The notes below the pieces were generated by a model. The model was not told the DNA's origin. It did not search any database and saw only the letters and a list, made by a program, of their open reading frames with translations. A stretch of DNA of 39,946 bases from an uncultured Tepidisphaeraceae bacterium. Its GTDB lineage: Bacteria > Planctomycetota > Phycisphaerae > Tepidisphaerales > Tepidisphaeraceae. The DNA lies in contig CAZCKE010000001.1 in NCBI GenBank assembly GCA_964499005.1, positions 1 through 39,946 of the forward strand, given 5' to 3'. Both the position numbers and the translations under genes were made by a program. Below are positions 3,001 through 34,254 of the stretch, piece by piece. Within the stretch, counting starts at the first letter, position 1, and each line of letters opens with the position of its first letter.

Positions 3001-6000
3001 GGGAGTTTCACATTCACACCCAACGATGACGGGGTTTATGTCGTGACGCTGGTGGGAACTGCCGGCAGCGTTCAGGCGAGCAATTCCCAAACGATCAACG
3101 TGACGATGGTGGCGCCGACCGCTTCCATCATCGGATTGACTCAAACGATCACCGAAGGCAACACGGTTTATTTGGCTGCGCAAGCAAGCGACCCCAGTTC
3201 CGTTGATGCCGCGACGCTTCAATATGCCTGGACCGTGACCGCTAACGGCAACGCATTTGCCAGCGGCACCGCACAAAGCTTCTCATTTACACCGACTGAT
3301 GGCTCGGTCTACGACGTGTCTCTGACCGTCACCGATCCGGATGGCCAGTCAACGACCGTGACCGGAAGCACGCAGCCGATCCCCAAAGCGCCGATGACTC
3401 TCATCGCCGAGACAGTCGCCTCCGACACGATCAACCTCCGCTGGCAGGATGAATCGCATATCGAGGACTACTACAAGATCGAGGCTTCCAGCGACAACGG
3501 CAACACCTACGCACAGCTTGGCACAGCTTCCGTGGACATCACGCACTTTCTGGCGACCGGCTTAAATCCCGGCACGAGGTATCTGTTCCGCGTGACCGGC
3601 ATCCGCAACGGTCAAGGCACGAATATCGCCACGGCGATCGCCAGCACCGATCCTGCCGCGCTCACCGGCCTCACGGCCACGGCAGTTGCCAACAGTGATT
3701 CTCAAATTCATCTGACATGGAACGCGCCCAGCGGCTCTATCAACCCAAATATCGAAGCGATCCAGGTCGAGTATCGCTCAAACGAAGACTTCAACTACAC
3801 CCAACTTCAGCCGTTTTCTCCGACAACGACTTCAACAACGTTGACGAATCTCGACCCCAATACCGTCTATTACTTCCGTATCCGTGCCTGGACAACACCA
3901 GGTGCCTACCATGGCCCTGACTACTTGGGCAACAACGATTCAGTTAATCTCTCACCCTATTCCGCGCTCGCGACGGCCACGACAAATAATGTTTTGCCAA
4001 CGGCTCCAACAAATGTTACGGCTTCCGCTACCGGGCTGCCTGGCCAAATCCATGTCACCTGGTCAGGCGACAGCACCTATGCGGATGGATTTAATGTACG
4101 TGTTTCGACGGATGGCGGACAGAGTTTCGATCCGCCCGTGGTCACGCCCGGCCCCACTACATCAATGGTCGATTTGAACTGGTGGGATCCCCGCCAAAGC
4201 TATGTGGTCGAAGTGTCGGCATTTAATAAAGTCGGCGAATCCACATCAACTGTTTCGGGCTCAGTGACCCCTACCGCGATGGGGGCTGTCGGCAGCCTTC
4301 AGGCATCGCCGGTTTCCAATCACCAAATTCAATTGTCATGGGCGTACACACCAGCGCCATCGAGCAATTCATATTTCCCGACATTCATCATCCAAGCGAG
4401 CGTGGAAGGTGGTCCATTTGCAACGATCTGGACAACAAATGGAACCTCGTATAACGATATAAATTTGACCGCGGGGACGAGCTACACCTATCGCGTTCAA
4501 GCTCAGTACAACGGCGGTTTCTCGGACTACTCAGCATCTGCCACCGCCATCACCACCAATGCTCTTCCGTTGGATTTAAGCAATCCGAGTCTTTCCGATA
4601 CGCTCAGTTTTGGCGTCCTCAGTTTTGGCTATACGGCGCCAACGGATCTGAATCGAGACGGCATCAATGTGGAGATTTCCACCGATGGGGTGAACTATGC
4701 CCCCGCAACATTGCCCGTTTCCTTCTTCGGTGCGCCCAATAGTATTGTCGGCCTGGAACCCGGTACAACCTATTACGTCCGAGCGTATGCATACAACAGC
4801 GTGGGACGTTCGGATTATCTGTACTTCAATCCAGTCGCAACGCACGCGGTGACCAGTCCAACGATGATTAGCGCCTCTACGCCCACGGCGTCCATCGGAT
4901 ATCCGCAGGCGAATTCCAACACGCAGCTGGCGCTGCAATGGAATTATTCGCCAACACCGGGCACGAGCGAGCCTCAAAGCTTTGAAATCCAGCAACTTGC
5001 CCAGGGCGACAGCGACTACCATGACGCCGGCACCCTCCAGAACTTTAATCCATCCAACAATATTGTGACCACGCTCATCAAGAATTTAACGCCGGGGGTC
5101 AGCTACCAGTATCGGGTTCGCGCGGTCTACGCCGACTATTACAAGACGAATTGGAGCGATGCTTCGGCGCCGGTGTCAACGACAGCCCTATTGCCTTCCA
5201 TGCCCTCGAACTTGTCAGCAACGCCATCGGGCTCGACACAAGCAATTTTCAATTGGAACAGCTCTTCGCTGGTGACCGATGCCTTTAGCGTCCAGATTTC
5301 CTCCGACGGCACGAACTTCACGGATGCCGGCACAACTTTATTTGTGCCGAACGCGTCCACTTTCGGCATCCCCGTGCAGGGCCTTGCGCCATCGACGACG
5401 TATTTCTTGCGGGTCCAGGCGTTCAACAGCGTCGGCGTCTCGGGATGGACCGATGCCGTGAGCGTCACGACGGGTCCTGCGTCGAGCGGCAATGCGCCCA
5501 TCGTCCCCGTCGCTCCGAGTGCCACGACTCTCGATTCGGCAATCGCCGTGAACCCCGGCGAGATCGATTTACAGTGGACGAGCGTCGACCGGGCCACCGC
5601 CTATCTAGCGGAAATCTCCTCCGACGACACAACATTTACCCCCATCGGCCAAACATCCGGCACGAGCTACGCCGCCCGAGGCCTGACCATCTCAACGCAC
5701 TATTTCTTCCGCGTGATCGCCAGCAACGCCGGTGGCGATGCACCGCCGTCCAATGTGCTCGACGCCACCACGCCACCCTACGCAGCTCCCGCCAATTTGA
5801 CGGCAACGCCAGTCTCGCAAACACAAATCAGCCTGGCGTGGACGGAAACCAATACGGATGAAAGCGGGTTCCGGGTTGAAGAATCCACCGATGGCCTGAC
5901 ATATGCTCCGGTGAATCAGGTGAGTCATCCGCCGACCACAACGCCGTCGGATATGCGGGCCTATTTGGTGCAGGGATTGAATCCGGGCCAATTGTATTAC

Positions 6001-9000
6001 TTCCGCGTCCGTACCGTCGGACCCGGCAATGCATATGTCTCCGATGTCTCCAATGTGGCCAGCGCCGCGCCATTTGCCGTCGCGCAAGCCGCCCAGCCGA
6101 CCGGCCTGACCGTGACCGTTTTATCCAACTCCGAAATCCGCGTCCGATGGAACGACAATGCAAACAACGAGGATCACTACTCGGTCGTGCTCTACTGGAA
6201 TGGCGGGCTGGATATTCCGAACGAAACGGACGGCTCGGAGGAAAACACGATCTATGACATGCGCGAGGTCGCCTCGGACGTGAACGATGTCGTCATCGAC
6301 GACTTGCAGGGGGACACGCTCTATGAAGCGCGCGTGCACGCGACCAACTATGCCGGAGCTTCGGTGGTTTCGGACATGGTGGAAGTGCAAACACTTCCCG
6401 ATCCACCAACCGGTTTAGCCGCCGTCGCGACCTCGCCGACGACGGTTCACGTCAGTTGGAACCAGGTGCTTAGTTCCTCGGGCTATCATCTGCAACGCAG
6501 CCTTGATGGACAAAACTGGACCAGCGTCGGACCGGCGACGATCACAGACACCAGCTACGACGATACGAACGTCGGCGCCAATTACCTCTACCGTATTTCG
6601 ACGACAATGCCGGATGGCGACTCCCCGTTCAGCGCCGCGGCGGCGATATCGGAACCCAGCATTACCGATTTCAGCGCGAATAACGTCACGACGAGCGAAA
6701 TCGACCTGGCATGGACCCCGCTGAGTTCCGCGTCGAGCTACGAAATCGAACGCAGCACGGGCAACAACTTCATGTGGACGCTGCTTGCCACGGTGGATGG
6801 AAGCGCCAGCAGTTACGCCGACACTAATCTGATCACCGGAACGTCTTATTACTATCGCATACGGGCCCGCAACGCGATCGCCAGCTCGGCCTATACCAAC
6901 ATCAGCGCGATCACCATGCTGCCCACCCCGATCAATCTGGCTGGCAGCGTCTCGGCAACTTCCGCCAGCCTCAGTTGGATCAGCAGTGAAAGCGCCGTCA
7001 CTTACCTGATCCAGCAACAGATCAATGGTATCTGGCAAACCGTTTCCAGCGTGTTCAACACAAACCAAGCAACCTTCGGCGGCAGCTTCGCCCCCTCGAC
7101 GGTCTATAATTTTAGAGTCTCCGCGCGATCGGGCGGCGCCAGTTCAGATTTTTCGGATTCGCTCGCGGTCACTTCGCCGGATTTTGCCCCAACGCCGAGC
7201 GGGTTTACCGCCTCCAATCCCTCGTTCACATCGATCGATTTGTCCTGGGCCGCCAGTGCCGGCGCGCAAGATCAATTTATTCTGGAACGATCCAGCAACG
7301 GCGGGGCCTTCTCCACGATTGCTGTCCTGGATGGAAGCACCAGCGCCTTCACGGACAGCGGATTGGCTGACGGGACCTCCTACACGTACCGACTCTCGGC
7401 AAGCAATTCAGCGGGACGATCAGGCTTTACCGTGCTCAGCGCCACCACGGCTTTGGATGTACCCATTCATTTTGCCGCATCTTCCGTTACCTCTTCGGCC
7501 ATTACACTCACCTGGCAGGCGGCCAACGCCAACGCCGCTTACAATCTCTTCCAGTCCACCGATGACATCACCTGGCAGCCGCTGTCTCAACAGTCGCAGT
7601 TTGCCCGCTCGTTTGTGGTTACCGGCGCCTATCCTCCCGGCACGCCGTATTATTTCCGCATTCAAGCGTCGCTGAGCGGAATGCTCTCCGCGACGGTCGA
7701 TTTGTCGGGGACCACCCCTGCGTATCCACAGAAGCCGGCGGGGATTTCCTTAACCAATGTCGGCATGACGGGCGTCAGCATTAGCTGGACGCCCGGCTCG
7801 TCGGACGCCACGCAATTCCAAGTGCAACGCGGCATCTTCGCCAACTTCTGGCAGACGCTGGCCACAGTCGATGGCAGCGTCACATCCTATTTCGACAACT
7901 CGGTCGCTCACAATACCTCGTACAGTTACCGGATCATCGCGGTTAATGCCTTTGGACAATCGATTCCCGGCAATTCAGCCTCCATCGTCACGCCGTTGGT
8001 GGCGCCCGCGGCGCTGGCCGTGACCAGCGTCTCGGGCCATGAAACCGATCTGTCGTGGGCGCTGCCCAGCGAAGCGCTGAGCGGCCTGGATATCTACCGC
8101 TCGACCAGCGCTTCCTCGCTGGGGACGGTCATCGCGTCCATCGGGACAACGGACACCACCTATTCGGATTCAGGTCCGTTCAATTCCAATGCAACGTACT
8201 ACTATACCGTGGTTGCCAAGAGCGGATCGGTGAGCGCTGCGAGCGCGAGCGTCGCCGTCACGACGGGGAATTTCCCCCAGACTCCGACCAACGTCACCCT
8301 CGTCAACGGCAATTCGGAATATCGATTGAATTTGGCCTGGTCCGCCGTCGCGGGCGCGAGCAGTTACACGATCTATCGACGGACGGTGAGCACGCAGTGG
8401 ACCTTCATTAATACCGTCGACGGGTCGGTGCAAAGTCCCGGCTATTCCGATAGCGGGTTGGACCCCGGTCGGGCTTATGAATACCGGATCACGGCCAGCA
8501 ATGCCGCCGGCGAATCGGGATATTCCACGGTGGCGGCTTTGGCAACCTCCCTCATCGATCCGGCATCGCCTGATGGGCTGACCATCACGGCTGATCCGAA
8601 CGATGGCACGGTCCTGAACCTGACGTGGACCAATCACGCCGGCGACCAGAGCGGCTTTGAGGTGCAATCGGCCGAGTGGGGCGCCACAAACTTTGCCATG
8701 AACGATATCTATTCCTCCTCGGTGACGATCGGCCCCAGCGCCACGTCGTATCAAGCGACGGGCCTGGTCAGTGGTCAGACATATTTCTTCCGCGTGCGTG
8801 CGATCCGTCCGGATGGCCCGAGCGACTGGTCCAACGAAGCCTATGGGATCACCGCCGACCCGCAGCAGTTCGGCGGGCAATATGCCGCCGCTCCTGGCAT
8901 CGTCGGCGGCGCGCCCCTTCCCGGACCCAGCGGCTTCCTGCACCAGTACGTCGTCACCGTCAACGGCAACGACGTCTATAACTTTGTCCCGACCGCCGAC

Positions 9001-11241
9001 GTTCCTGTTTCAGGCAAGCTGGTCTTCTCCAGCGCTCCGGTCTGGGCGAGCTCGCCGGAGGATGCGATGCGGCGGGCGCTGGTGGCCGATCAAAGCTCCA
9101 TCGTCCTTCCCTCGGGGGACGGCATGGCCCCGTCGATCAACATCCCCTGGCTCGACCCGCGCTATCTGCGGCTGGAGTTCCTGTCGTTCATCGGCAATCC
9201 CGAAGGGGAATCGGGCGTGGACGCTTCCGGCGAATCCGATCTGGACGGGGCGACGGGGCATTTCCGAACGTACATTTCCTACAACAACGACTACTACAAC
9301 TGGACCATCCACCCCTGTCCGAACATCGACATTTACGAGTATTATGAGGGGACGCATCAGGAGAACGGCGTGTGGGTGCCCGACCCGTATACGCCGGCGC
9401 AGCTCGATAGCTTTACGGCGACGGATGGGAATAATTCGGGGAACAGCGTGACGGCAAGTGATGCGAATCCAGTCACGCTATATATTCCAGTAAATTATGG
9501 AGGTCGAGTATCTATTAACCTGTCTGATCAAGCAATTGCTGCATCAGATGGCGATCTCGATGATGTCTTGTGGGATGCTCGTGGAAGCAATAACGCCGTA
9601 ATTTCGTCAGGTACTTTCTCCTCTGGTCCGACAATTACACTCGATGCACCCAGCGAGGGTGACACTATCACGATTGAGGCCGGCGTCGATAGAAGCGGAA
9701 ACGATAAATTGGAAGGAACTGAAGTCACCCGAACAATCAAGGTAGTCTTTCAAAAGTTGATTCTTGCCTGGAATACTTCCGAACAAGAGAATAGCCAATT
9801 ACACGGTTTCGCTCTCGATATTGGGGGCATAACCTCTACACCGAATGAAGTATTCGACCCAACTTTAGCACTCGGTAACCAATCATTGACGATCGACTGG
9901 GGCGATGGATCGCCGGTTGACGATGGTACTGCGCCGCACTTTTTTGATGATGAAGGAGAATATCAAGTACACATTTCAGGTACGGACCCAACCGGTCGTC
10001 AATTCGTCACGTCTTTTTCAATCGATGTCGCTGATCCTGCCGAGCCTGCTGATCCGGTTGAACAGGCATCGCTCGAAAGCGGAGCACTGAGTTGGGATTC
10101 TATAAATGGGGCTGTCCGTTACGACATCTATCAAGGTGCTGATTCAAGCATTGGAGACATGACTTATGTAACCTCCGTTACTTCACCTGGGTATTCAATT
10201 CCAGACAATGGCGGCAATGGAGTCTTCTATTCCATCGTTGCTATCATGCCCGATAACACACAGCAACCTGCTGGTGACATTTTCGCGTCACCTCCGAGCA
10301 CCGCTCCGTCAAATATTGGACCAGCACCGTCGGTGCCGCCGCCATTATTTACTTATGTCGGGGTGGCAACATCAGCACAAAACGGCGCCGCAATCGCAGC
10401 TTTAAAACTACGATATGCAGCAGATCCATCAAACATCAATAATCTGCTAGTGGGAATACATGATGTGACGATTACCGATATCGGAGCTATAGTCGATTTT
10501 AATGGATCCTTTTCTTCCATTGGCAACATAAAAAAGGATGCCGCTGGAAATTATGTTCGCGAGGGAGGTTATGCAACAGCGAGAGCTTGGATGATTAGCA
10601 TGGCAGGTCACCAGCGCACGAACATACAAGATCTGGGAAACGGGACACTTACCGCTAATCTCCAAGATGGTACCAACGTCAAATTGTCTAAAGATGGGGA
10701 TTGGGGAGACGTCCTTATTACCACTTCTGCAGGAGTAGTTACTCCCGTGACATTTGAGAATCCGGTGCGAGAGACAGATTTTAGATTTGCAGGACCAGGT
10801 CAAGGAGCTCAAGGGAATATTGATGTGACGGACTTCATCAATAGTGTATTGATAGAAGAAAAAGATGCAACGGGTTTATTGAACCCATGGAATCTTAAGA
10901 ACCCGGCTGCGCCTGATCCAAAAGTTGCAGATAAGAAGAAAACGGAATTGGCATGGGCGCAAGAAAAGATTTTTAACGATACAAAAGCGCGTCTGTTAAA
11001 ATTGCAGCGAGCCGGGCAGGTCACCTATGCAGAACCTGGGAAATACGTCGGTCCGGTGACACCCCCAACTATTGATAAATACCAAGCTATAACAAAAGTG
11101 GTAATCCGATTTGTCGGTAATCCAGCCACATATGCTAATTGGTCATTTATTATTATAGCCGGCAACCAAGTTGAAGCACTGAATAATGATCCACAGCTAA
11201 AAGCGTACGGATATACGTTCTCAATCCAATGGCCATTTTAG
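1..11241 (+). CDS. Giant secreted/surface repeat protein (5' partial, more than 3,740 aa visible): FN3 array, PKD/Ig-like domains and a variable C-terminal module
   Basis: Frame 1 has no stop from nt 1 up to the TTG at 55 used by the ORF track, so the gene is cut by the window edge. The translation shows about 22-24 FN3-type modules with recurring Y-x-[YF]-R-[VI]-x-A signatures (YYFRIRA, YTYRVQA, YFFRVIA, YYYRIRA, YEYRITA). PKD-type modules carry SNDPDGDSISSW...WGDG motifs. Stop is TAG at 11239-11241. Confidence 0.95.
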   Translation, partial: GSYQVQVSIQDFNGQTSPLSTVALVNYTGATAPTAPTNFAVSAGQTNTTFSWSGGSGTNFSGFMVYGITSSNTVVTLGTTGSSTRSLTIANSSMPSTVVQAFVVAETSTFPVAYSQYSNIAAVRVNSLSVPAAPANLAATLALSSGHAVANLIWDNTSDAELGYYVQRQLHSNPGSWATIATLAADQDSYADTIPDVSKIYDYQIIAFNNKGNSSASNTVTVSCLPTVTLGSIPSATEGSGMTLTSTTSPAISGDSLSYAWSIFDQNGNPYTPSGVALNQSSLTFTPIDSGNWSVSLKATDSTISSGSQIASTTINSGNIPVAVLPPTVTISGSSSYSAGPGGYRLNVSAVYPSNDPDGDSISSWTVNWGDGVPGNPDIVTYTNIVDHIYHPYTTPNPNVTITASATDDDGTYAANLISLTVTPSVSDLSATADTHGAINVRWVYFWPGGHFDIQRSTDGATFTTISSMSADSSTNELLYTDTSGQANTHYYYRIHGTDSAGYNFYTNIASATTAAPGTYGAAPLDTIVVPVDGSSVVSNVTLLAGVHYLLQASGAFFLGGDIGRADAEYSYSPYNNTVIADDANVNYGVDINDTSNDLNKSTWWGPYNTSHVYTIDFIGTGQQLSFNLHDDNYSDNVQDNNPSPLEVQIFAEYPAAPSNLTAQYSVASQQVNLSWTDNAATETGFRIERSTDGQNFSLLQTLNSPSSGIGGTVTAADATAVLGQKYWYRVFAIGPSGFDPNAPSNVAVLSLAGPTVTLGSVPSAAEGSSMTLTSTATAANSSDTLAYAWSIFDAGTLYTPSGVALNQSSLTFTPNDPGNWWATLAVTETQTGATTTASTGTFAVANLPPTVSISGASTVAQSVAYTLSLSAVYPSNDPDGDSISSWQIDWGDGTSSNPDVQTVSGNPSSVTHVYQVQPASGVITATATDDDGTYAANPLHIQVTAPPAVTIVGAPSTSPEGTAITLTGTTSNFPTAPSFLWSVTKDGQAYTSGLGPTNQGSFTFTPNDDGVYVVTLVGTAGSVQASNSQTINVTMVAPTASIIGLTQTITEGNTVYLAAQASDPSSVDAATLQYAWTVTANGNAFASGTAQSFSFTPTDGSVYDVSLTVTDPDGQSTTVTGSTQPIPKAPMTLIAETVASDTINLRWQDESHIEDYYKIEASSDNGNTYAQLGTASVDITHFLATGLNPGTRYLFRVTGIRNGQGTNIATAIASTDPAALTGLTATAVANSDSQIHLTWNAPSGSINPNIEAIQVEYRSNEDFNYTQLQPFSPTTTSTTLTNLDPNTVYYFRIRAWTTPGAYHGPDYLGNNDSVNLSPYSALATATTNNVLPTAPTNVTASATGLPGQIHVTWSGDSTYADGFNVRVSTDGGQSFDPPVVTPGPTTSMVDLNWWDPRQSYVVEVSAFNKVGESTSTVSGSVTPTAMGAVGSLQASPVSNHQIQLSWAYTPAPSSNSYFPTFIIQASVEGGPFATIWTTNGTSYNDINLTAGTSYTYRVQAQYNGGFSDYSASATAITTNALPLDLSNPSLSDTLSFGVLSFGYTAPTDLNRDGINVEISTDGVNYAPATLPVSFFGAPNSIVGLEPGTTYYVRAYAYNSVGRSDYLYFNPVATHAVTSPTMISASTPTASIGYPQANSNTQLALQWNYSPTPGTSEPQSFEIQQLAQGDSDYHDAGTLQNFNPSNNIVTTLIKNLTPGVSYQYRVRAVYADYYKTNWSDASAPVSTTALLPSMPSNLSATPSGSTQAIFNWNSSSLVTDAFSVQISSDGTNFTDAGTTLFVPNASTFGIPVQGLAPSTTYFLRVQAFNSVGVSGWTDAVSVTTGPASSGNAPIVPVAPSATTLDSAIAVNPGEIDLQWTSVDRATAYLAEISSDDTTFTPIGQTSGTSYAARGLTISTHYFFRVIASNAGGDAPPSNVLDATTPPYAAPANLTATPVSQTQISLAWTETNTDESGFRVEESTDGLTYAPVNQVSHPPTTTPSDMRAYLVQGLNPGQLYYFRVRTVGPGNAYVSDVSNVASAAPFAVAQAAQPTGLTVTVLSNSEIRVRWNDNANNEDHYSVVLYWNGGLDIPNETDGSEENTIYDMREVASDVNDVVIDDLQGDTLYEARVHATNYAGASVVSDMVEVQTLPDPPTGLAAVATSPTTVHVSWNQVLSSSGYHLQRSLDGQNWTSVGPATITDTSYDDTNVGANYLYRISTTMPDGDSPFSAAAAISEPSITDFSANNVTTSEIDLAWTPLSSASSYEIERSTGNNFMWTLLATVDGSASSYADTNLITGTSYYYRIRARNAIASSAYTNISAITMLPTPINLAGSVSATSASLSWISSESAVTYLIQQQINGIWQTVSSVFNTNQATFGGSFAPSTVYNFRVSARSGGASSDFSDSLAVTSPDFAPTPSGFTASNPSFTSIDLSWAASAGAQDQFILERSSNGGAFSTIAVLDGSTSAFTDSGLADGTSYTYRLSASNSAGRSGFTVLSATTALDVPIHFAASSVTSSAITLTWQAANANAAYNLFQSTDDITWQPLSQQSQFARSFVVTGAYPPGTPYYFRIQASLSGMLSATVDLSGTTPAYPQKPAGISLTNVGMTGVSISWTPGSSDATQFQVQRGIFANFWQTLATVDGSVTSYFDNSVAHNTSYSYRIIAVNAFGQSIPGNSASIVTPLVAPAALAVTSVSGHETDLSWALPSEALSGLDIYRSTSASSLGTVIASIGTTDTTYSDSGPFNSNATYYYTVVAKSGSVSAASASVAVTTGNFPQTPTNVTLVNGNSEYRLNLAWSAVAGASSYTIYRRTVSTQWTFINTVDGSVQSPGYSDSGLDPGRAYEYRITASNAAGESGYSTVAALATSLIDPASPDGLTITADPNDGTVLNLTWTNHAGDQSGFEVQSAEWGATNFAMNDIYSSSVTIGPSATSYQATGLVSGQTYFFRVRAIRPDGPSDWSNEAYGITADPQQFGGQYAAAPGIVGGAPLPGPSGFLHQYVVTVNGNDVYNFVPTADVPVSGKLVFSSAPVWASSPEDAMRRALVADQSSIVLPSGDGMAPSINIPWLDPRYLRLEFLSFIGNPEGESGVDASGESDLDGATGHFRTYISYNNDYYNWTIHPCPNIDIYEYYEGTHQENGVWVPDPYTPAQLDSFTATDGNNSGNSVTASDANPVTLYIPVNYGGRVSINLSDQAIAASDGDLDDVLWDARGSNNAVISSGTFSSGPTITLDAPSEGDTITIEAGVDRSGNDKLEGTEVTRTIKVVFQKLILAWNTSEQENSQLHGFALDIGGITSTPNEVFDPTLALGNQSLTIDWGDGSPVDDGTAPHFFDDEGEYQVHISGTDPTGRQFVTSFSIDVADPAEPADPVEQASLESGALSWDSINGAVRYDIYQGADSSIGDMTYVTSVTSPGYSIPDNGGNGVFYSIVAIMPDNTQQPAGDIFASPPSTAPSNIGPAPSVPPPLFTYVGVATSAQNGAAIAALKLRYAADPSNINNLLVGIHDVTITDIGAIVDFNGSFSSIGNIKKDAAGNYVREGGYATARAWMISMAGHQRTNIQDLGNGTLTANLQDGTNVKLSKDGDWGDVLITTSAGVVTPVTFENPVRETDFRFAGPGQGAQGNIDVTDFINSVLIEEKDATGLLNPWNLKNPAAPDPKVADKKKTELAWAQEKIFNDTKARLLKLQRAGQVTYAEPGKYVGPVTPPTIDKYQAITKVVIRFVGNPATYANWSFIIIAGNQVEALNNDPQLKAYGYTFSIQWPF
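670..1269 (+). repeat. Internal segmental duplication, copy A (pair of PKD/Ig-like domains)
   Basis: Encodes LPTVTLGSIPSATEGSGMTLTS...YAWSIFD...ALNQSSLTFTP...PPTVTISG...VYPSNDPDGDSISSWTVNWGDG...ATDDDGTYAAN, collinear with copy B. Shared nucleotide runs include gcctggtcgatcttcgat and gacagcatcagctcatgg. Confidence 0.85.
2260..2832 (+). repeat. Internal segmental duplication, copy B (pair of PKD/Ig-like domains)
   Basis: Encodes GPTVTLGSVPSAAEGSSMTLTS...YAWSIFD...ALNQSSLTFTP...PPTVSISG...VYPSNDPDGDSISSWQIDWGDG...ATDDDGTYAAN, collinear with 670-1269. Confidence 0.85.
3370..8840 (+). repeat. Uninterrupted array of about 20 diverged FN3-type modules (protein-level repeats of roughly 90-100 aa) inside the giant CDS
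   Basis: Each unit has an 'L(T/S)A...(I/L)xLxW' start and a 'Y(Y/F)(F/Y)R(V/I)xAxN..G.S..S' end. Units are diverged at nucleotide level, so this is not a simple tandem DNA repeat. Confidence 0.8.
8950..9047 (+). repeat. Junction segment of the giant gene that recurs at 15333-15430
   Basis: gtcgtcaccgtcaacggcaacgacgtctat...ccggtctgggcg (VVTVNGNDVYNFVPTADVPVSGKLVFSSAPVWA) aligns without gaps to 15333-15430. About four fifths of the bases look identical by eye. Confidence 0.85.
9406..9750 (+). repeat. Conserved roughly 115-aa Ig-like 'pre-tip' module of the giant gene (AT-rich version), homologous to 12183-12518
   Basis: DSFTATDGNNSGNSVTAS...[17 protein letters not shown]...SSGTFSSGPTITL...EAGVDRSGNDKLEGTEVTRTI aligns with the start of the 12117 ORF. 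About half the residues are identical by eye, including long identical runs. Synonymous positions differ strongly (A/T here, G/C there). Confidence 0.85.
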
Positions 11242-11260
11242 ATTTATAAATTTTCTTATT

Positions 11261-11575
11261 ATGTCAATAAGTTTAACCATAAGTTGGGCGGACGGGCGCT
11301 TTGAGCAAATTCCGGTGGCTGGACAGCTATCTGCCAGTACAAGCTGGCGAGACCTTGGACTAGAATTGGGATTAAAATGGTTGCCACTTTTTCACGCTTG
11401 GATACCAGTGGAACCGGAAAATCTGGACGCACTAATCAGCGAGGTAGAAAGATTTCGTGACGCTGCTTCAAAGCGAGGCGACAAATGGAAGTCTATTACA
11501 GAAAGCGCGGATCGACTTACCACAGCATTGCGTGATTTGAAAGATAAAAGCGGCTGGGAAGCATCAATTGGTTGA
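11261..11575 (+). CDS. Small soluble hypothetical protein (104 aa); candidate cognate immunity/antidote for the giant protein's C-terminal tip
   Basis: ATG lies 19 nt after the giant gene's stop on the same strand. It shares the AT-rich composition of the giant gene's tip. No hydrophobic segment and no recognisable motif. Position is the only functional evidence. Confidence 0.6.
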   Translation: MSISLTISWADGRFEQIPVAGQLSASTSWRDLGLELGLKWLPLFHAWIPVEPENLDALISEVERFRDAASKRGDKWKSITESADRLTTALRDLKDKSGWEASIG

Positions 11576-11643
11576 TCACAGTTTATTGGGCCGTGATGCT
11601 TATCGATGTGAAGCGAGTGTGTTGATAAATCTCTTAAAACCCC

Positions 11644-12108
11644 ATGATTACGACCAAGTTACGTAATATCGCGCGATCCTTGGTGAATTTGAGCTTTGGC
11701 ACACTTAGCGCCATATCGCTGTGCATAGTGATAGTGTTGGTTGTTATTCGTCTTAGTGGACGAACATGGACTTACTCGATGCCTCTAGCAACAACTCCGC
11801 AGGCATATCACCTTAACTCGTCCGTAGATGTCGAAGTCAATTATTCTGGCGGTATAGCCATCGAGCAAGATTACCTACCCCACATATTTGGCAGAAGGAT
11901 CCCATATTTCGCGGCTATCGTTTTCACAACAATTGTCCCGATTCTTTACGCGATTTTTTACTGGTATCGCGCGCGCGAGAGAAGATATCGCCTTGCAAGT
12001 AAAGTTTGCGCCATTTGCGGCTACGACCTCCGCGCTACCCCAGACCGCTGTCCGGAATGCGGCGCCATTCCCAAAAGCTCCATCAAGCCATCTCTGCCCA
12101 TGTTTTGA
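11644..12108 (+). CDS. Two-pass membrane protein with C-terminal CxxC...CxxC zinc ribbon ([19 protein letters not shown])
   Basis: Two hydrophobic spans (about aa 14-36 and 86-108) flank a roughly 50-aa loop. A basic stretch (RARERRYR) and a 4-Cys ribbon follow. It has the same architecture as 14693-15328 and a nearly identical C-terminal 30 aa. Confidence 0.75.
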
Positions 12109-12116
12109 TTGGCGGT

Positions 12117-14696
12117 ATGGTAAAAAATCTCATCCGCGCATTGCGGCCAATCCTGAGCGTCGATCTGACGGCGCCAGAGACGGATAGCTTGACGGGAACA
12201 GATAGCACCAATTCAAATAATAGCGTGACGGCGGAAGGAACGCAGGAGCTGTACGTGCTGGTGAATGCCAATGGGAACGCGACGGTGAAGTTCTCGGACA
12301 GTGCGATCGCGGCTTCGGACGGGGACACCGATGACGTGCTGTGGCGCGTATTGCAGGGCAATACGACCATCGGCTCGGGGACGTTCTCCAGCGGGGCGAC
12401 TATCACGCTCAATCCGGCAACCCAGGGAACGGAGTTCATCGCCGAGGCGGGCGTGGACATGTCGGGCAATGACAAGCTGGAAGAGCCGGAGGTGACCGAG
12501 ACGATTCGGATTCACCTCACGCATTTCGGCGGCATCACCGCATTTCGTACCGATGGGAAATTTGGTCAGGCTGTCACACGAGCTATTCAACAGACCAATG
12601 ATCCGACGAAATACGTCGTACTTGTCAACGACAACTTTGACCAAACGCTTGATCAGAGCCAAGCGGACAACGCGTTACCTACAGCACCGATTCAAAATGA
12701 TCAGATGCAACTCGATCAAAACGGTAATCCGCTCGATCCTGACTTTGGACACATTACGCTGCACCAGCTCCCGCAGGGGTTCATTGGCGGAACAGTAACT
12801 TTGCTACTATCCGACCCAAGTGCGGTAAAGCTCTTTGATAAAAATGGCCAGGCGCTCACCTCCGGCGATCTGACCCTCAATCTGTCAAATCCCAGCGGCT
12901 ATCTTGCTGGCCTGTTGTCAGGCGACGTAGATATCTGGTTTGAGGGGATGCACACGAGTCCAGATTTCAGTTTCACGATTTCCTATAATGAGCCTGCGGT
13001 AAGCCAATATTCCCAAGATGTGGTGCATCTGCTCATCGCCGACTGGCAGTTCGTCGGCTCCGATGGCAATCGGCTCACCAACGATGTCTCTACAGTTTCC
13101 GAGGAAACGTTGACGGATGAAGCTAACGGCAATCTGGATTCACCGACTATTCCTAACGAAGACAAGTTCAAAGTTCTTTTAGACGGCTTGCCCAGCACCG
13201 CACTCCAATCGCTTCAATTCAACTCAATATCGGGCCCAACGGACAGCTTCCTAGACACATTTTCGGGGACTTCATCCTCAACCTCATCGAATAATTTCAC
13301 GGTGATGTATGGTGTTCCCGATGGTTTAAGTCAGTTTTCGACGAGCCAGCGGAGCTCCATTTTAAGTGCCCTCGGAGTTAACGCCATTGCCGCGAATACA
13401 GTTCGAGTAATCGCGCAATTGGCGAATGATGTTTTACAACAGGAGATCAAAGCTGACCCCATGCGCGTAACATTTGTCAGCGGAGAAGATCCAACGGATG
13501 GGACTATTGAAACAAGGAGATCAATTGACAATAACGAGCCCTTTTACATGAAGGGCTATATGCTGGAACTGGAAGTCAACAATAAAGTCGGCACTCAGGT
13601 CCAATGGTCATTTCAGAAGATAGGGCATGGCAACCAGGATTTCGGGGCTTTTTATGACGGCCATGATTGGGTGGATTATGCGGATAACCACAAATTGAAC
13701 GCCAAACCGACGGATGGCCTCGTAAATTGGCGATCTGACTTTGATGCTAACGGCGATATCAATGATGAATATTCCATTACGGCCAAATACACCAAGCCGG
13801 ATGGCACGCCGGGATTCTCGACTCTTCATTTAAAGAGCCGGCTTCTGGACCCAAATGACCCCAACGCCAGTGCGAAATACCACACCGACGCGGATATGGC
13901 GCAGAGAGCGCTCATCCAGGATTTCGGCCTCGACAAAGGGCGATTAAGCTCTTATCGCATCGGACAATATGATAAGGGCTCCCAAAATGGCTGGTACGTG
14001 TCGTCGCGGCAGATGAATGTGCGTCAATGGTCCGCTATCGCAGACGAGGTCTCGAATTTCCGCCATTTCGCGCTCAACAAGGCATTTGATCCGACGCTTC
14101 TTCTGGACACAGTTACGGGCATTTGGAATGAGTTTTCCAAGATTCTTGCCGCACCACTCCCTAATAAAGTGGACCAGAATAACGCACAATTCGGAAATTG
14201 GATCACTCAGGCATTAACGGCCAGCGGACTTACGGCACCAAATGGAGCGTCCGTGACCAGTGAACAAATCTTGCGGGCTTTGATCACGCATGAGAGCGGA
14301 GGAACGCATTCCTATGATTTGCAAGCGCCGCTTGCCGCTAACTACATTCAGGTCGGGACACAAAACAACGGAGCTGGGGCCAATTTGCACCAATTAACTG
14401 ACTGGGGGCTTGGCTTCGCGAAAGTCCAACCATATAACGACAATGGCTTGAATCTGTATGACCCCTATCAAAATATCTTACGTGGAGCACAAATGTTCGC
14501 GGCTGCCCTTGCAAACCAGGGAATAAATGAAGTGGGAGACAATAGGATCTGGATGGCCTATTACTACTATAATTCGGGGCACATCGAAAATGGGTCAATA
14601 GATGGCGCGGGAGGAGCTCGTGCAGTAAATAGATTCGGTGCCGCAGATCACGCCGACGCTTTCTTTAGTGCTTTAGGGCTTCAGCCTCCCCAATGA
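12117..14696 (+). CDS. Orphan C-terminal module of the giant-protein family (about 859 aa): conserved Ig-like pre-tip module, unknown middle, lytic-transglycosylase (SLT/lysozyme-like) C-terminus
   Basis: The ORF-track start at 12006 overlaps the preceding gene. The first in-frame ATG after that gene's stop is 12117. The N-terminus has no signal peptide and aligns to aa about 3118-3232 of the giant protein. The C-terminus carries SLT-type motifs in order: LITHESGG (catalytic E-S), [33 protein letters not shown]. The stop overlaps the next start (caATGAac). Confidence 0.8.
12183..12518 (+). repeat. Conserved Ig-like pre-tip module, GC-rich copy (homolog of 9406-9750)
   Basis: [18 protein letters not shown]...[17 protein letters not shown]...[13 protein letters not shown]...[21 protein letters not shown]. 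Similarity to the giant protein stops right after this block. Confidence 0.85.
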
Positions 14697-15328
14697 ACGT
14701 ACCAACGAACCAAAAATGGAAACGACGATTTACGCGAACGGCACTTATTCTCGATATAGTTCTCTTGCTTTCTGCCGTTACAGCTTGGACGATTAGCAAT
14801 TTTTTCGCCTTCGGTATAATACAGCGAGAGTACGAAATATCTGTTGCTAAAAATTCTCTATTCGATGACGATGGCAATGAATTCGTTTCTCGCTATCGCG
14901 GCTTGGATGTCTCCATGGGGGTCATCATATACTTTGTTTACATTGATCGACTGTCATTAACGCACGTTCCGAGCGACACCAAGCTGCAGGTTTCCGGAAC
15001 CCATTTCGTGCTTGATAAAAGACGCAATTCGCCAAGCCTACTCAGAAAAGGCATTTTGGGGATCGAAGTACGTAATGAACCACCGCATCAAGCAGGACAG
15101 CTCGGCAGTATCGGCTCCTCATTATTGATTTGCGTGCCGTTGTGGTTTTTCTGCATTCTTTTTAGCGTGTGGCCATTACGAATTTTGGTCGGGTTCGTGC
15201 GTCGCCGCGACTACGCCGCCATTCGCTGCGAGACTTGCGGTTACGACCTGCGCGCCACTCCTGATCGTTGTCCGGAGTGCGGCGCTGTTCCCGAACATCC
15301 AATCAAACCCTCATCGTCGATAACTTGA
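14693..15328 (+). CDS. Two-pass membrane protein with C-terminal zinc ribbon ([19 protein letters not shown]); candidate immunity partner of the SLT-like orphan module
   Basis: ATGA start/stop overlap with the upstream module. TM1 is about aa 16-42, followed by a roughly 100-aa loop and TM2 at about aa 141-170, then RRRDY and a 4-Cys ribbon. The C-terminal 30 aa nearly match those of 11644-12108 (DNA 15227-15316 versus 12007-12096). Confidence 0.75.
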
Positions 15329-15332
15329 TTGA

Positions 15333-15443
15333 GTCGTGACCGTCAACGGCACCGACGTCTACCACTTCTTCCCCGATGCCACCGTTCCCGTTTCGGGCAC
15401 GCTGGTTTTCTCCAGCGATCCGGTCTGGCGTAGTGTAAAATAA
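15333..15443 (+). pseudogene. Third orphan fragment of the giant-gene junction region, truncated by IS insertion
   Basis: It starts 5 nt after the previous stop and encodes VVTVNGTDVYHFFPDATVPVSGTLVFSSDPVW, homologous to 8950-9047. Homology ends at about 15430, where the sequence runs into tgtaaaataattc (IS end) and a stop at 15441-15443. Confidence 0.8.
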
Positions 15444-16707
15444 TTCATCCGCGTCTCATGCGGCCTCCTTGTAATAGAATTTCAGCAGTCCACCCAACCG
15501 TTCCCGGCACTGCACCGGTCCATCGCGAGGATAATCAGTGTCGGTGAGCGCGGGAAACAGGAGCCGATTCTGCTTACCTTGATGCGGCCGCTCGGAATGG
15601 TAATGCTCGATGTACTGCGTGACGGCGTGGCGCAGGGGCGCTTCGCCGAAGAAGATCATCCGGTCCAGGCACTCCGATTTGATCGAGCGGACAAAACGCT
15701 CCGCGAACGCATTGAGATTGGGACTTTGCGGCGGCAGAGCCAGCGGCTCAATGCCGGCGGCGCGGAAGATCATGTCAAAGCCACTGGAGAATTTCGTATC
15801 CCGGTCGTGCAGAAGATATCGGCAGCGGGAGAGCAGATCGCAGCCGCTCATGGTGAGGTTGCGTGCTGCCTGCTTCATCCACGCGTTGGTGGGATTGGCG
15901 GTGATGCCGCCGAAATAAACTTTGCGGCTGGCGACGTGTATGAAGAACAGGACGTAATACGTGACCAACCCGCAGGCGGTCCAGACTTCGGTGGTGAAAA
16001 AGTCCGTGGCCAGCAGACAATCGGCGTGGGACTTGATGAAGTCGGACCAGTCGGTCTTCCTTTTTCGCATCGGCACCGGGTCGATGCCATGTTCTTCGAG
16101 GATGTTTTTGACGGTCTGATGGCTGAGTCCATGGCCGATGGCAGCCAGCGCGCCGGTGATCCGCCGATAACCCCAAGCTGGATTTTCGTTGGCCAATCGG
16201 AGGACTTGCATCACGGCGGCCGGATCGGTCGGCGGCCGACCGGGGACGGCGGCTGCCCGGCGGTCGGAGGTGTCGAACTTTCGGGCCACGAGTTGCCGAT
16301 GCCAACGAAGGATCGTATCCGGCGTGACGATGGAGGCGACGTCCTGGAGGAGTTTGCGGCCGAGCTTCTTGCCGATCGTGGCCAGTGTGGCGCGTTGGGC
16401 GTCGTTCAATCGCCGTCGGCCGGAGAGTTGATCGCGGAGGATTTTGTTCTCGGCGGTCAGGTATTCGATTTTCAATTGAAGCTGATGGTCAATGCGGCCG
16501 GCGACCCAGGCGAGGATTTTTTCCCAGCCCGTGGAATGGGATTGAGGCATCGGGTGAATGTAACGGTGTCGGCGGGATTCTAAAAAGAGAGATCGGCAGG
16601 AAAACCGCCAAGAGATTTTGGGGCAGATTTGGGGCAAAACGGCCTCCAGAAACAGTCCAGAGGCAGTTCAACGCCAGTTCGCACTCAGTTCATAAGTCCC
16701 GTTTACA
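15431..16707 (-). mobile_element. Insertion sequence with single rve/DDE transposase (IS481-like); boundaries approximate
   Basis: The left boundary is where homology to the giant gene breaks (about 15430), followed by TGTAAA. The proposed right end is the complementary TTTACA at 16702-16707. The terminal inverted repeat is weak beyond 6 nt and I found no target-site duplication. Confidence 0.55.
15456..16550 (-). CDS. DDE transposase / integrase core (rve) domain protein with N-terminal HTH region
   Basis: rve-type landmarks in order: LLATDFF (D), LLHDRDTKF (D), NAFAERFVRSIKSE (E), then YNSERPHQG-like HYHSERPHQG. I prefer the ATG at 16550 (MPQSHSTGWEK). The ORF track extends to 16637 with an implausible Cys/Arg-rich leader. 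Confidence 0.9.
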   Translation of the reverse strand: MPQSHSTGWEKILAWVAGRIDHQLQLKIEYLTAENKILRDQLSGRRRLNDAQRATLATIGKKLGRKLLQDVASIVTPDTILRWHRQLVARKFDTSDRRAAAVPGRPPTDPAAVMQVLRLANENPAWGYRRITGALAAIGHGLSHQTVKNILEEHGIDPVPMRKRKTDWSDFIKSHADCLLATDFFTTEVWTACGLVTYYVLFFIHVASRKVYFGGITANPTNAWMKQAARNLTMSGCDLLSRCRYLLHDRDTKFSSGFDMIFRAAGIEPLALPPQSPNLNAFAERFVRSIKSECLDRMIFFGEAPLRHAVTQYIEHYHSERPHQGKQNRLLFPALTDTDYPRDGPVQCRERLGGLLKFYYKEAA

Positions 16708-16895
16708 AGGGCGTTAAGGCTCGATTTTTAGGTAATAGCGAAGGTTCCGACCTTGGTTCGGGACCAAGAGGTCGTAAAACGATACTCACCATCATCACAC
16801 CGCAATCATTTGCGTAGTTGTCGCGAACGGCCACAAAAGTTGCTGTCATGTGGCCGACCTGGATAGATTCCCTCCACCCATCTGCCAAGGAACAC

Positions 16896-17654
16896 ATGTC
16901 AGACGCAACGAACTCCGTGGCCCGGCGCGCCAAGCCCACCGAACTCCTCTCCCACTGGCCCAAACTGATCGAGAACCTCAGCTTCTCTCCGCAGGAGTTC
17001 TACTCGCGTATCGAAAAAGCCCTGGCCGACCGTCAGGTTCCCGACCTGCAAACCTCACGAGTGGATTGGAAGGAAGGCGGCGTGCTTTCGGCCCGCCGCG
17101 AATACCTGCGCCTCCAGCGCGAGCGGCTGATCTTCGACATCTGCGGCGCTCCCTTCGGCACCGGTTTTTTCGTCTCAATCTGGTGCGGCGAGCGGCCCTT
17201 GAGGCTGGGGCACCTGATCCGAGCCCTGATCTTGGTGGGAAGCGGAGCGGTGACGTGGTTTGGGATACTGCAATTCACGCCCCGCTCCACGTTTTATGAA
17301 ATGCGGCGCATGGGCATCGATCCGGGACATGCGCTCATCGCCATCACGGCCGCCGTCGTCCTGGTGGCCACCTTCCTGATCGTGCTGCTGGGCCCCAGGC
17401 TCGATAACATCCTGATCCACACGCCTGTGATCGGATACTTCTACGAGCGCTACTTCCGAAAACTCACCTACTACCGCGTGGACCGGATGTGCATGTATCA
17501 ACAGGCTGTGCATGCGGCGGTCATGCAAATCATCGACGAGATCACCAAATCCCAGGGCATCCAACCCCTCTCGGAACTGGAACGCCGGCCGATCACCAGA
17601 GAACCGGTCATGAGGGAACTGTTCCAGCAAGCCGGTTCCAATGGGCACGGCTGA
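16896..17654 (+). CDS. Hypothetical membrane protein (about 252 aa from ATG 16896; ORF open from 16818)
   Basis: A soluble N-terminal roughly 100 aa (SFSPQEFYSRIEKALADRQVPDL...) is followed by 2-3 hydrophobic spans (GFFVSIWCG, LILVGSGAVTWFGILQF, ALIAITAAVVLVATFLIVLLGP) and a roughly 90-aa tail. Its stop overlaps the next gene by 14 nt (ATGGGCACGGCTGA). Start codon is uncertain (16818 TTG, 16848 ATG or 16896 ATG). Confidence 0.7.
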   Translation: MSDATNSVARRAKPTELLSHWPKLIENLSFSPQEFYSRIEKALADRQVPDLQTSRVDWKEGGVLSARREYLRLQRERLIFDICGAPFGTGFFVSIWCGERPLRLGHLIRALILVGSGAVTWFGILQFTPRSTFYEMRRMGIDPGHALIAITAAVVLVATFLIVLLGPRLDNILIHTPVIGYFYERYFRKLTYYRVDRMCMYQQAVHAAVMQIIDEITKSQGIQPLSELERRPITREPVMRELFQQAGSNGHG

Positions 17655-20600
17655 ACCTCCGGCAACTTCAGTTCTCTCTCCAGCCCAACAGCTTGCCCAG
17701 CAATTCTATGATTGGGAACTGCGGGGAAGGGGATGGCTAATGTGGGATCGTCCGGTGGAACCGGAGCCGCCCTTTCAACCTTTTTTCGATCATGTCATCG
17801 CGCCCGTCGATGGCGACGACGGCAGGAAACACACCCTCCTCAGCGGTCTGATCGATTGGCTGCACCAAAAGGTCACGGGTCAGGGAAATAATACCTCTGC
17901 ACAGACAATCGAAGAATCGCCAGGGGAATTCGAGCCGATCGAACTCGCCGAGCCTTCCGATTTGGTGGAGCTGAGGATATCGCTTCCCCAGAACCTGGAC
18001 GTATCCCAAGAAGCCGCCGAGCAATTCCTGCTGAGCCTATCGACCGTCCGCCGCCCGGTTGCGTTTGAATTGATCGGATTGCCCGAGACGATGATCGTGC
18101 AATTCGCCTGCGAAGGGGATGATGCCGCTCATCTGGAGCAACAATTGAGAGCCATCTTTCCCGACGTAACCGTCAGTGTCCACGCCGGTCTTCTACAAGA
18201 GTACTGGCAGGAGCCAGAGAATGCCGAAACGGTCATCGCCGAATTCGGCCTCGCCCGCGAATTCATGCTGCCCCTGGCGATGCCCGGATTCTCCGTTGAT
18301 CCACTGACCGGCATCGCCGGCGCCCTGGTGGATGTGCGGGAAGATGAAATCGCCCTCCTGCAAATCCTGTTTCAACCCGTCCGGCACCCTTGGGCCCAAA
18401 GCGTGCTGCGCTCCGTCACGTTCTCCGATGGCACGCCCCTATTCGAGGGCATGCGGGATTTTGTCAAACAGGGCAGAAACAAAGTCTCTCGGCCTCTGTA
18501 CGGCGCGGTCATTCGCGCCTGTTGCCAAAGCCCCGAGGGCAGCCGGACTTGGGATATGGTGCGACATGTCTCAGGAGCACTGTCGGTACTTTCGGACGCC
18601 CAAGGCAATGAACTGATCCCGCTTGATAACGACAATTACGACCCGACCGATCATGAGCACGATGTCCTCTTTCGCCGCAGCCGCCGCTGCGGGATGCTTC
18701 TCAACAGCGAGGAGCTGACCTCACTGGTTCATCTCCCCTCGGCCTCCGTTCGCATTCCCAAGCTGCGCGGACAAGCGAAGAAAACAAAACCCGTCCCGCC
18801 GATGGTCCTGGGCCATCAAACGGTACTGGGGATCAATGAGCATGCCGGACGATCCCAGTCGGTGACAATGAGCCCCGACCAACGCTCGAAGCACCTGCAC
18901 CTCATCGGCGCCTCGGGAACCGGCAAATCCACCCTTCTCTTAAACCTCATTATCCAAGACATCAACAAGGGCGATGGTGTTGCCGTCCTCGATCCCCACG
19001 GTGATCTAGTGGATGCGGTCTTGCAACGAATCCCTCCCCAGCGGAGAGGGGATGTAGTGCTCTTTGATCCGGGGGATGAGGACTATCCGGTCGGGTTCAA
19101 CATCCTCTCCGCCCACTCGGAACTTGAGAAAAATCTGCTCTCCTCCGACCTGGTCGCCGTCTTTCGCCGCTTCTCCACCAGTTGGGGCGACCAAATGAAC
19201 GCCGTCTTGGGCAACGCGATCATCGCTTTCCTGGAAAGCGAGCGGGGAGGGACTTTGGTGGACCTGAGGCGGTTCCTGGTCGAAGCCAAGTTCCGCAAAG
19301 AGTTCCTCTCCAGCGTCCGCGACCCGGAAATCGTCTACTACTGGGCGAAGGAGTTCCCGCTCCTGAGCGGCCGGGCTCAGGCTCCGGTTTTAACCCGCTT
19401 GGATGCCTTCCTGCGCCCCAAGCTGATCCGCTACATGGTGGGCCAAAAGCAGAGCAAGCTGGATTTAGGCCAGGTCATGGACAATGGGGGTATTCTCCTG
19501 GCCCGCCTGTCCCACGGAGCGATCGGCGAAGAAAATGCCCAACTGCTGGGCACGATGCTCGTTTCCAAGCTCCATCAGATGGCACTGGGCCGCCAGCGGA
19601 TTGCGGAGACGGATCGCAAATACTTCTGGCTCTACATCGATGAATTCCAGAACTTCGCGACGCCATCGATGGCGGCGATTCTCACGGGAGCACGGAAGTA
19701 TCGCCTGGGGCTTGTTCCGGCCCATCAGGAGCTTCACCAGTTGACCAGCAAGACACCGGAGGTCGCCAGCGCGGTGATGTCCAACGCTTTCACGCGCGTC
19801 TGCTTCCGGCTGGGGGATGAGGATGCCAAAAAGCTTGCCGGCGGTTTTGCCTCCTTTGAGCCTATTGATTTACAGAACCTCTCGACAGGCGAGGCGATCT
19901 GTCGGGTGGAACGGGCGGAGTTGGACTTTAATCTTCGCACATTGCCTCTGGCGCCAGTCGATGAGCAAACGGCGGCGACCGCGCGACAAGAGGCAATCAC
20001 TGCCTCTCGCCAGAGATATGCCGTCCCGCGCGCCAACGTTGAAGCAGAACTATGCCGCTCGCCCGGGGATGAGGAAGCTGGGGTACAAGAAGCGAAGGTT
20101 TGGGAAAAGCCAGATCAGAATGTGGATATCAAGCTTCCCGAGCCGGTCTTGGCTCCGCCATCTACACCCGTCGGACCCAAGCCCGTCCCTCGTCCGCAAA
20201 AAGTTACCAGCGATGTCATGATCGAGCCGCCACCCCAAGGCCGGGGCGGACCCGAGCACAAATACCTCCAGCAATTGATTAAACAGTATGCCGAGGGCCT
20301 GGGGTTCAAAGCCTCCATCGAGGAAAACATCCTCGGCGGAAAGGGCGTGGATGTTGCTTTGACCAAATGCGACACCTCCATCGCCTGCGAAATCTGCATC
20401 ACGACGGACGATGCTCATGAATTGGGGAATGTGCAGAAGTGCCTCACAGCCGGCTACAAGCATGTTGCGGTCATCAGCCCCAGCGCCAATCGATTGAAGA
20501 GTCTTGAGAAAGCGATTAGCCCCCAATTGGCGGATGACCAGAGATCGCGTGTGAAGTTCTTTGCACCCGAGGAATTGCTGCGGTTCATCCAACAGTTGGA

Positions 20601-20760: not shown

Positions 20761-20801
20761 CTTCCTCACCCAATAAAAATTCAAAAGTAGAGAGATTTTG
20801 C

Positions 20802-27788: not shown

Positions 27789-27803
27789 AAATAACGGATT
27801 CCA

Positions 27804-31153: not shown

Positions 31154-31167
31154 GGTAAGACTCAATA

Positions 31168-32199: not shown

Positions 32200-32201
32200 C
32201 A

Positions 32202-34251: not shown

Positions 34252-34254
34252 GCC

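Follow-up and report, generated by a model that had tools for sequence, protein, structure and literature searches.

We analysed a 39,946-nt metagenomic contig (CAZCKE010000001.1 of assembly GCA_964499005.1) from an uncultured Tepidisphaeraceae bacterium (Planctomycetota; Phycisphaerae), hereafter the window, which opens with a giant gene followed by an array of putative toxin cassettes. The giant open reading frame (ORF) is open in frame 1 from nt 1, leaves the contig at its 5' end, and stops at 11241. Except for an insertion sequence (IS), all features of the array lie on the forward strand. Within the first 2950 residues of the giant protein, Pfam searches found fn3 in 20 stretches together with PKD (PKD_4). 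This FN3/PKD array is followed from ~8947 by a conserved pre-tip domain (beginning 'YVVTVNG...') and then by a beta-sandwich-type domain at 9391–9744 that occurs twice at the locus, which we call the shared module. The remainder of the gene, tip 1 (9751–11241), begins 'LAWNTSE' and consists of a PKD-like region, an FN3-like region, a linker, and a C-terminal domain (~10522–11238) that we predict to be a toxin. Tip 1 is followed by a 104-aa ORF (11261–11575), its probable immunity gene, and by a 154-aa ORF (11644–12108) for a membrane protein with a C-terminal Zn-ribbon tail that matched DZR below threshold.

Behind these genes lies a second, orphan ORF of 859 aa (orphan 2; ATG at 12117, end at 14696), made up of the second copy of the module (12168–12512) and a different C-terminal region, tip 2 (12534–14696, 720 aa), a putative displaced toxin. 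The start of another membrane/Zn-ribbon ORF (14693–15328, 211 aa) overlaps the tip-2 stop by 4 nt. It is followed by fragment 3 (15333–15428), a 96-nt piece corresponding to the first 32 codons of the pre-tip domain (giant gene 8950–9045), and by an IS481/IS3-type insertion sequence on the minus strand (15429–16637) with a DDE transposase at 15456–16637. A short stretch at 12110–12154, at the upstream edge of orphan 2, is similar to 15426–15469, a segment that takes in the final bases of fragment 3, the IS terminus, and the last codons of the transposase; we call this stretch the junction remnant. Searches of the window turned up no tRNAs and no enrichment of promoters or terminators.

Steps in the G+C content of third codon positions (GC3) were located by maximum-likelihood change-point analysis with a 2-lnL support interval and a permutation null. 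An earlier, sequence-only reading of the window had described the giant gene as GC-rich at third positions up to an abrupt switch at about 9430, with a further switch at about 12540 in orphan 2, and the GC3 profile contained both steps. GC3 was 0.71 over 55–9405 and 0.39–0.41 from 9406 to the stop, and the change point fell at nt 9454 (support 9445–9478 using the whole gene, 9424–9466 using its last 4 kb) with a log-likelihood ratio (LLR) of 110.7 against a permutation maximum of 8.1. The giant gene is thus of host composition over 1–9453, which spans the FN3/PKD array, the pre-tip domain, and the first 21 codons of the module, while the rest of the module is AT-rich. Taking GC3 and plain GC together, junction 1 is bracketed by 9424–9478 with a best estimate of 9454–9456. 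In orphan 2, GC3 was 0.78 over 12168–12539, with the module GC-rich throughout, and dropped to about 0.53–0.54 in tip 2. This second change point (nt 12540, support 12498–12552) marks junction 2 and the start of tip 2; it was much softer than the first (LLR 14.4 vs a null maximum of 7.1).

The small ORFs behind the tips had GC3 values of 0.39 (11261–11575), 0.47 (11644–12003), and 0.49 (14693–15223), and fragment 3 had 0.84. The GC-rich character that the sequence-only reading had assigned to the orphan module and to the third fragment therefore held. Its AT-rich runs needed trimming: the first does continue through the giant gene's stop and from 11261 onward, and the second does start at 12540, but they end at ~12008 and ~15186 rather than at 12108 and 15328, about 100 nt ahead of the stop of each Zn-ribbon ORF. 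The final rise in GC came mainly from codon positions 1 and 2 and therefore carries little information on codon dialect.

In a plain-GC segmentation of the 40 kb, the strongest two breakpoints fell at 9456 and 15187, with GC of 0.485 inside and 0.58 outside, and 9456–15186 was the sole large compositional island of the window. The best GC-rich islet within that island was 12009–12540 (LLR 14.1 vs a null maximum of 9.2). The other genes of the window had GC3 of 0.49–0.77, mostly 0.6–0.77. As a background we used 354 overlapping 100-codon windows from these genes (mean GC3 0.70, sd 0.074, minimum 0.46). Cassette-1 windows all had GC3 ≤0.47 (z = −4.3), outside or at the edge of the background, and cassette-2 windows had 0.47–0.63 (z = −2.3). 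The two cassettes also differed from each other, with GC3 of 0.40 in the attached cassette 1 and 0.53 in the displaced cassette 2 (P = 7e-8). These results confirm the compositional mosaic. A weaker compositional difference exists upstream of the main step, where four-fold sites of the pre-tip region (8947–9453; G 0.53, C 0.38) differ from those of the FN3 array (55–8946; C 0.43, G 0.35; P = 0.02).

The two copies of the module are colinear (giant 9391–9744, orphan 12168–12512) and share 54% amino-acid identity (E = 3e-28). The breakpoints had been proposed to sit on either side of this module, and they do: the step in the giant gene lies 21 codons inside it (9454) and that in the orphan 9 codons past its end (12540). 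A single module is written in two codon dialects, as had also been claimed, with GC3 of 0.41 in the giant gene and 0.78 in the orphan. Synonymous sites between the copies were saturated (proportion of synonymous differences, pS, of 0.87, a value inflated by the opposite compositional biases), and nonsynonymous divergence (dN) was 0.42. Over codons 9391–9453, 9 of 12 identical residues used the same codon in both copies, and almost none did past 9454. Four-fold usage in the orphan module (G 0.59, C 0.26) was statistically indistinguishable from that of the giant gene at 8947–9453 (P = 0.22) and nearer to it than to the FN3 array or to other genes, as would be expected if giant 8947–9453 and the orphan module were once contiguous. 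Other proteins matched the module (P0011 over four stretches, P0033, and P0070), and these matches show that it is a generic repeat domain. A word-indexed protein search with giant 8905–11238 returned nothing but the window's own orphan.

With the same query (giant 8905–11238), a full HMMER search across 1.84 billion representative proteins showed that tip 1 is portable. The unit from nt 9751 to the stop recurred at the C-termini of six otherwise unrelated proteins (P0005, P0006, P0007, P0013, P0030, and P0043), with homology beginning at query residue 271–284 and scaffolds including FN3/Calx (P0005) and SdrD-like (P0007) proteins. Its last ~200–240 residues occurred alone in P0003 (59% identity), P0004, P0008, and P0012, and the toxin domain was also found on an Rhs/YD protein, P0010, whose contig holds a classical array of Rhs orphans along with IS elements. 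In the window (9751–9771) and in the same six proteins, the unit starts with (L/V)(A/S/T)W(N/T/S/D)xD(D/E), a string that may mark the boundary of the unit much as VENN or DPxGL do in other toxins.

The ORF behind tip 1 travels with the toxin. Homologues of 11261–11575 (102–104 aa, 32–54% identity) lay directly behind the toxin in loci L001, L002 (twice), and L004, with a partial homologue behind it in L090 and a 104-aa gene, matched by size alone, behind P0010. With a homologous or same-size partner in five other loci, ORF 11261–11575 is therefore probably the cognate immunity gene of tip 1, and the two together form what sequence comparison suggests is a portable toxin/immunity pair, their activities being putative. 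Locus L002 additionally carries an 88-aa truncated toxin stump with its own copy of the immunity gene as well as a PT-HINT protein, and it resembles the P0010 contig in having orphan arrays, PT-HINT proteins, and IS elements.

Scored against Pfam, the tip-1 toxin domain and its 104-aa partner both fell short of the threshold for any toxin or immunity family. An alignment-based AlphaFold2 (AF2) model of the domain was confident (predicted local distance difference test, pLDDT, of 87; predicted TM-score of 0.80). The conserved motif NPxxE...NIDxxD...EEK places E (10771), D (10822), and ExK (10855–10863) on adjacent strands (98–104 and 109–114) of the model, and this arrangement suggests a PD-(D/E)xK nuclease as a lead only. 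The weak Foldseek matches in the PDB included the CdiA-CT/CdiI entry 4g6u (E = 0.32). With a confident model but no PDB match at E ≤ 0.001, the domain could have a novel fold or could be a PD-(D/E)xK nuclease that has diverged strongly.

Tip 2 is unrelated to tip 1 in sequence. Its sole database relative, P0002, was 42% identical over 736 aligned positions (720 tip residues), and in P0002 the tip sits behind a different N-terminus. The alignment starts at orphan residue 140, or nt 12534, at the compositional change point. The C-terminal part of tip 2 contains motifs in the order seen in SLT domains: ESGG (14292), GFAKVQ, and YYYNSG (YNSG at 14568). A scan of JGI metagenomes with the tip-2 alignment found no relatives, PDB sequence searches with both tips and with a two-sequence profile gave nothing useful except a PKD-like match to ColH, and the AF2 model of the C-terminal domain of tip 2 had a pLDDT of 32. 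The overlapping ORF 14693–15328 is, from its position, a candidate immunity gene for tip 2; no specific relative was found beside a tip-2 homologue.

The Zn-ribbon tails of the two small membrane ORFs (11644–12108 and 14693–15328), which lie at 11980–12108 and 15200–15328, were 68% identical. They belong to a tail family with 1878 matches on small membrane proteins in unrelated gene neighbourhoods; the name of one match, BH10PLA1, suggests a Planctomycetes soil bin. We considered the Zn-ribbon ORFs as immunity genes, for which there was no support in the first case and positional support only in the second. We likewise dropped the idea that their tails are a 3' recombination anchor in the resident dialect: tail GC3 was 0.66 and 0.51 (35 codons each) with synonymous sites between the tails saturated, and the GC excess lay mostly at codon positions 1 and 2.

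Fragment 3 starts 4 nt past the stop of the second Zn-ribbon ORF, is 82% identical in DNA and 78% in amino acids to giant 8950–9045 (synonymous divergence, dS, of 0.42), and is cut off by the IS. By this similarity it appears to be the stump of a third orphan. The transposase of the IS matched rve_3 and HTH_32 above the Pfam cut-offs and NCBIfam IS481 at 105 bits (cut-off 224); a search for terminal inverted repeats detected none. Both orphan junctions have the same colinear layout of Zn-ribbon tail, stop, TGATTG, start of the pre-tip domain, and IS end, with the pre-tip piece at orphan 2 nearly all deleted. The junction remnant (12110–12154) aligned to 15426–15469 with a local score of 34 (shuffles: mean 24.2, sd 2.1, maximum 30), and this best non-self match in the window sits at the equivalent junction. 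The alignment therefore implies that an earlier IS probably inserted at the same site and that an adjacent deletion then trimmed orphan 2; the remnant also provides the orphan's ATG (12117). Another IS was seen beside the boundary of the pre-tip domain in a different organism: in P0089, a single ORF joins part of a transposase to a pre-tip homologue at the 'QYVVxVNG' start position.

Independent assemblies supported much of the array. Contigs from two sequencing runs and one NCBI assembly reproduced 10327–12522, 10512–11614, 10875–11947, and 13141–15809 at 99.8–100% identity. The first and last of these, at 100%, include two of the four composition transitions: in one, the AT-rich tip 1 is linked with the orphan module in its GC-rich form, and the other (L005) runs from the AT-rich tip 2 into the GC-rich fragment 3 and the IS, reproducing the fragment 3 junction.

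We interpret the locus as the variable 3' end of a polymorphic toxin gene that has been diversified by displacement of C-terminal tips, with a probability of about 0.75. An incoming segment of lower GC would have brought in tip 1 and the 104-aa immunity gene together with the greater part of a homologous module and a Zn-ribbon ORF, and recombination within the module at ~9454 would have joined it to the resident gene. Rather than being deleted, the earlier module with tip 2 and its downstream ORF would have been shunted downstream as a promoterless orphan, behind which fragment 3 would be an older stump truncated by the IS. The GC3 steps would then be the scars of these joins. Cassette 1 (GC3 0.40) would be the most recent arrival and cassette 2 (0.53) either older or from a different source; that cassette 1 lies farther from host composition than cassette 2 fits younger and older arrivals. 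The route may have been a single crossover or a circular intermediate, as proposed for Rhs loci.

This is in essence the succession of horizontal acquisitions that the sequence-only reading had put forward, and every test that we ran fits it. The composition steps coincide with the homology boundaries, both tips are portable, and the partner of tip 1 is conserved. The last two observations also fit its suggestion that a new tip-plus-immunity cassette recombined into the module. What we infer is who the donors were, in which direction and order the events ran, and that the proteins have toxic and protective activities. Three hallmarks of polymorphic toxins were found: the same C-terminal domains occur on different scaffolds (tip 1 in P0005, P0007, and P0010; tip 2 in P0002), a small, co-varying probable immunity gene lies directly downstream of tip 1, and orphan cassettes keep a conserved piece (orphan 2 and fragment 3).

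Several observations weigh against this interpretation. Third-position identity between the module copies falls from 11/21 before junction 1 to 21/94 after it, but the drop is partly a by-product of the change in composition, and a maximum-chi-square test on module identity peaked at 9456 without reaching significance (P = 0.14). The compositional shift of cassette 2 overlaps the lower tail of the resident genes. Pattern scans of JGI metagenome contigs and GTDB genomes recovered no relative of the pre-tip domain plus module, and neither a donor nor a sister locus turned up in these searches. As for function, the likeness of tip 2 to SLT is at motif level only (PF01464 at 13.1 bits, cut-off 21.3, E = 0.071), Foldseek matched the tip-1 model to no PDB entry at E ≤ 0.001, and the N-terminus and export route of the giant protein lie beyond the 5' end of the contig. 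Finally, 9454 and 12540 are spanned by no independent contig, and the independent Logan contig that matches 10327–12522 (L006) ends 18 nt short of 12540.

Among the alternatives, the one that survives best, though we regard it as unlikely, is that toxin/immunity cassettes are AT-shifted by nature, so that the shift would be no sign of a recent transfer into this genome. Relaxed codon selection in genes that are seldom expressed, a mutational AT bias lacking the GC gain that recombination brings to core genes, or the AT-richness of mobile DNA could each be the cause, and mobile DNA is usually AT-richer than its host. In keeping with this, the cassettes lie 0.2–0.3 below their flanks in GC3 in three of the five loci compared: the window (0.38 in the tip vs a flanking or host value of 0.71), L002 (0.59 vs 0.80–0.93, with the step 28 residues before the tip), and L004 (0.69 vs 0.955). 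The relatives in the other two are at host composition, however, with GC3 of 0.86–0.87 in L090 (0.90 in residues 1–284 of the same gene) and 0.73 in L001 (0.67). Across a family that spans 0.38–0.88, the AT-rich dialect is therefore not intrinsic to tip 1. The step in the window is also abrupt and falls inside a single domain, and the module is GC-rich in the silent orphan and AT-rich in the expressed gene, the opposite of what relaxed selection predicts. A step within one domain that has a GC-rich silent paralogue thus favours import followed by amelioration over relaxed selection, and a shared intrinsic bias does not account for the difference between the two cassettes.

We give less credence to the mosaic being a chimera of metagenome assembly, in which contigs of two or three related populations were spliced wherever they had k-mers of the module in common. 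The contig is metagenomic, and the lack of independent contigs across the two steps and the end of L006 at 12522, as at a graph branch, are what such an artefact would leave. That end could also reflect a branch that arose because the population carries more than one tip behind this module. Yet the independently assembled stretches already tie the AT-rich tips to GC-rich pieces, and the module copies, 54% identical in DNA, are too different for an assembler to have confused them. A chimera at these points would in any case still imply a population-level polymorphism of tips at the same junctions. Tandem duplication of the 3' end of the gene with in-place divergence and no foreign DNA is the least probable explanation, for although the colinear layout of both orphan junctions could spread by unequal crossing-over, the unrelated tips are each closer to proteins of other organisms than to one another and divergence in place leaves three adjacent compositions unexplained.

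C-terminal displacement of this kind is a known phenomenon, a textbook feature of polymorphic toxins that will not surprise a specialist. In Rhs loci, conserved and variable parts carry distinct GC signatures and downstream tips keep core fragments of variable length; an exogenous tip enters by a crossover in the core, and a circular intermediate would shunt rather than delete the incumbent tip (Jackson et al. 2009, PMC2935791). Our locus similarly combines a conserved core with an exchangeable tip of distinct GC and has displaced tips with core fragments downstream, and the tip-1 toxin domain occurs on a true Rhs protein (P0010). It differs in having an FN3/PKD-array scaffold in place of an RHS_repeat/TEN_YD-shell (Pfam), in lacking the PxxxxDPxGL boundary as well as any DPxG[LM] or YDxxG[RN] string in the giant protein, in placing the crossover inside a beta-sandwich domain rather than at a demarcation motif, and in its planctomycete host. 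No type VI secretion genes were found among the window ORFs scanned against Pfam.

Orphan modules of contact-dependent growth inhibition (CDI) systems keep upstream homology to varying extents, and IS elements often break them up (Poole et al. 2011, PMC3150448). The giant surface protein, polymorphic C-terminal toxin, immunity gene directly downstream, and IS-cut orphans are shared with CDI, but the giant protein contains no VENN string and has no Pfam match to the haemagglutinin (FHA) repeats or PT-VENN, and its tip-1 unit begins at 'LAW(N/T)xD(D/E)' instead of VENN. No CdiB-like ORF is present in the window downstream of the giant gene; the upstream region lies off the contig. The locus is accordingly a member of neither Rhs nor CdiA. 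It follows the logic of the polymorphic toxins described by Zhang, Aravind et al. (2012, PMC3482391), who listed planctomycetes among the lineages that carry many such families. The scheme is a repeat-rich stalk that ends in a variable C-terminal toxin with immunity next to it, plus cassettes standing on their own that can recombine into the main gene; PT-HINT proteins also occur beside a relative (L002). Unlike those families, the tip-1 domain and its 104-aa partner match no Pfam toxin or immunity family, and the domain has no significant PDB match.

The novelty lies in the host lineage, in the FN3/PKD scaffold, and in a candidate toxin/immunity pair without a Pfam family. We know of no contact-dependent antagonism system characterised in Planctomycetota. 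The locus extends Rhs/CDI-style tip exchange with GC scars to a soil planctomycete and an FN3/PKD stalk, and it provides a candidate toxin/immunity pair with a confident model of the toxin domain; other bacteria carry this pair on Rhs and further scaffolds. The GC3 steps give exact coordinates for excising the exchangeable units for expression tests. A further-reaching proposal, which we hold as possible but doubtful, is that the Phycisphaerae FN3/PKD giant is an undescribed scaffold for delivering interbacterial toxins. It would combine a new toxin fold with a dedicated 104-aa immunity family that also occurs with Rhs proteins, and conserved DNA would frame its cassettes on both sides (the module 5', the Zn-ribbon tail and fixed junction 3'). 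If so, tips could be replaced and could also be stacked, thanks to this two-sided framing.

Directly behind the array and its IS (16818–22652) are a 278-aa ORF, a TrwB/TraD-type coupling ATPase (17641–20760), and a large serine recombinase (20853–22652), and the toxin array may abut an integrative or conjugative element. A 650-aa beta-helix and PKD protein is encoded on the minus strand at 24175–26127, between the recombinase and a polysaccharide cluster (26373–39702) with UDP-glucose dehydrogenase, Wzy_C, a flippase, several GT2 and GT4 transferases, and GNAT. The UDP-glucose dehydrogenase shares up to 83% identity with Tepidisphaeraceae MAGs, which places the organism in the Phycisphaerae. 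GC3 is uneven within this cluster, at 0.49 in 38947–39702 and ~0.6 in the genes at 31168 and 34255, and the last 219 nt of the contig (39728–39946) have a GC content of 0.41.

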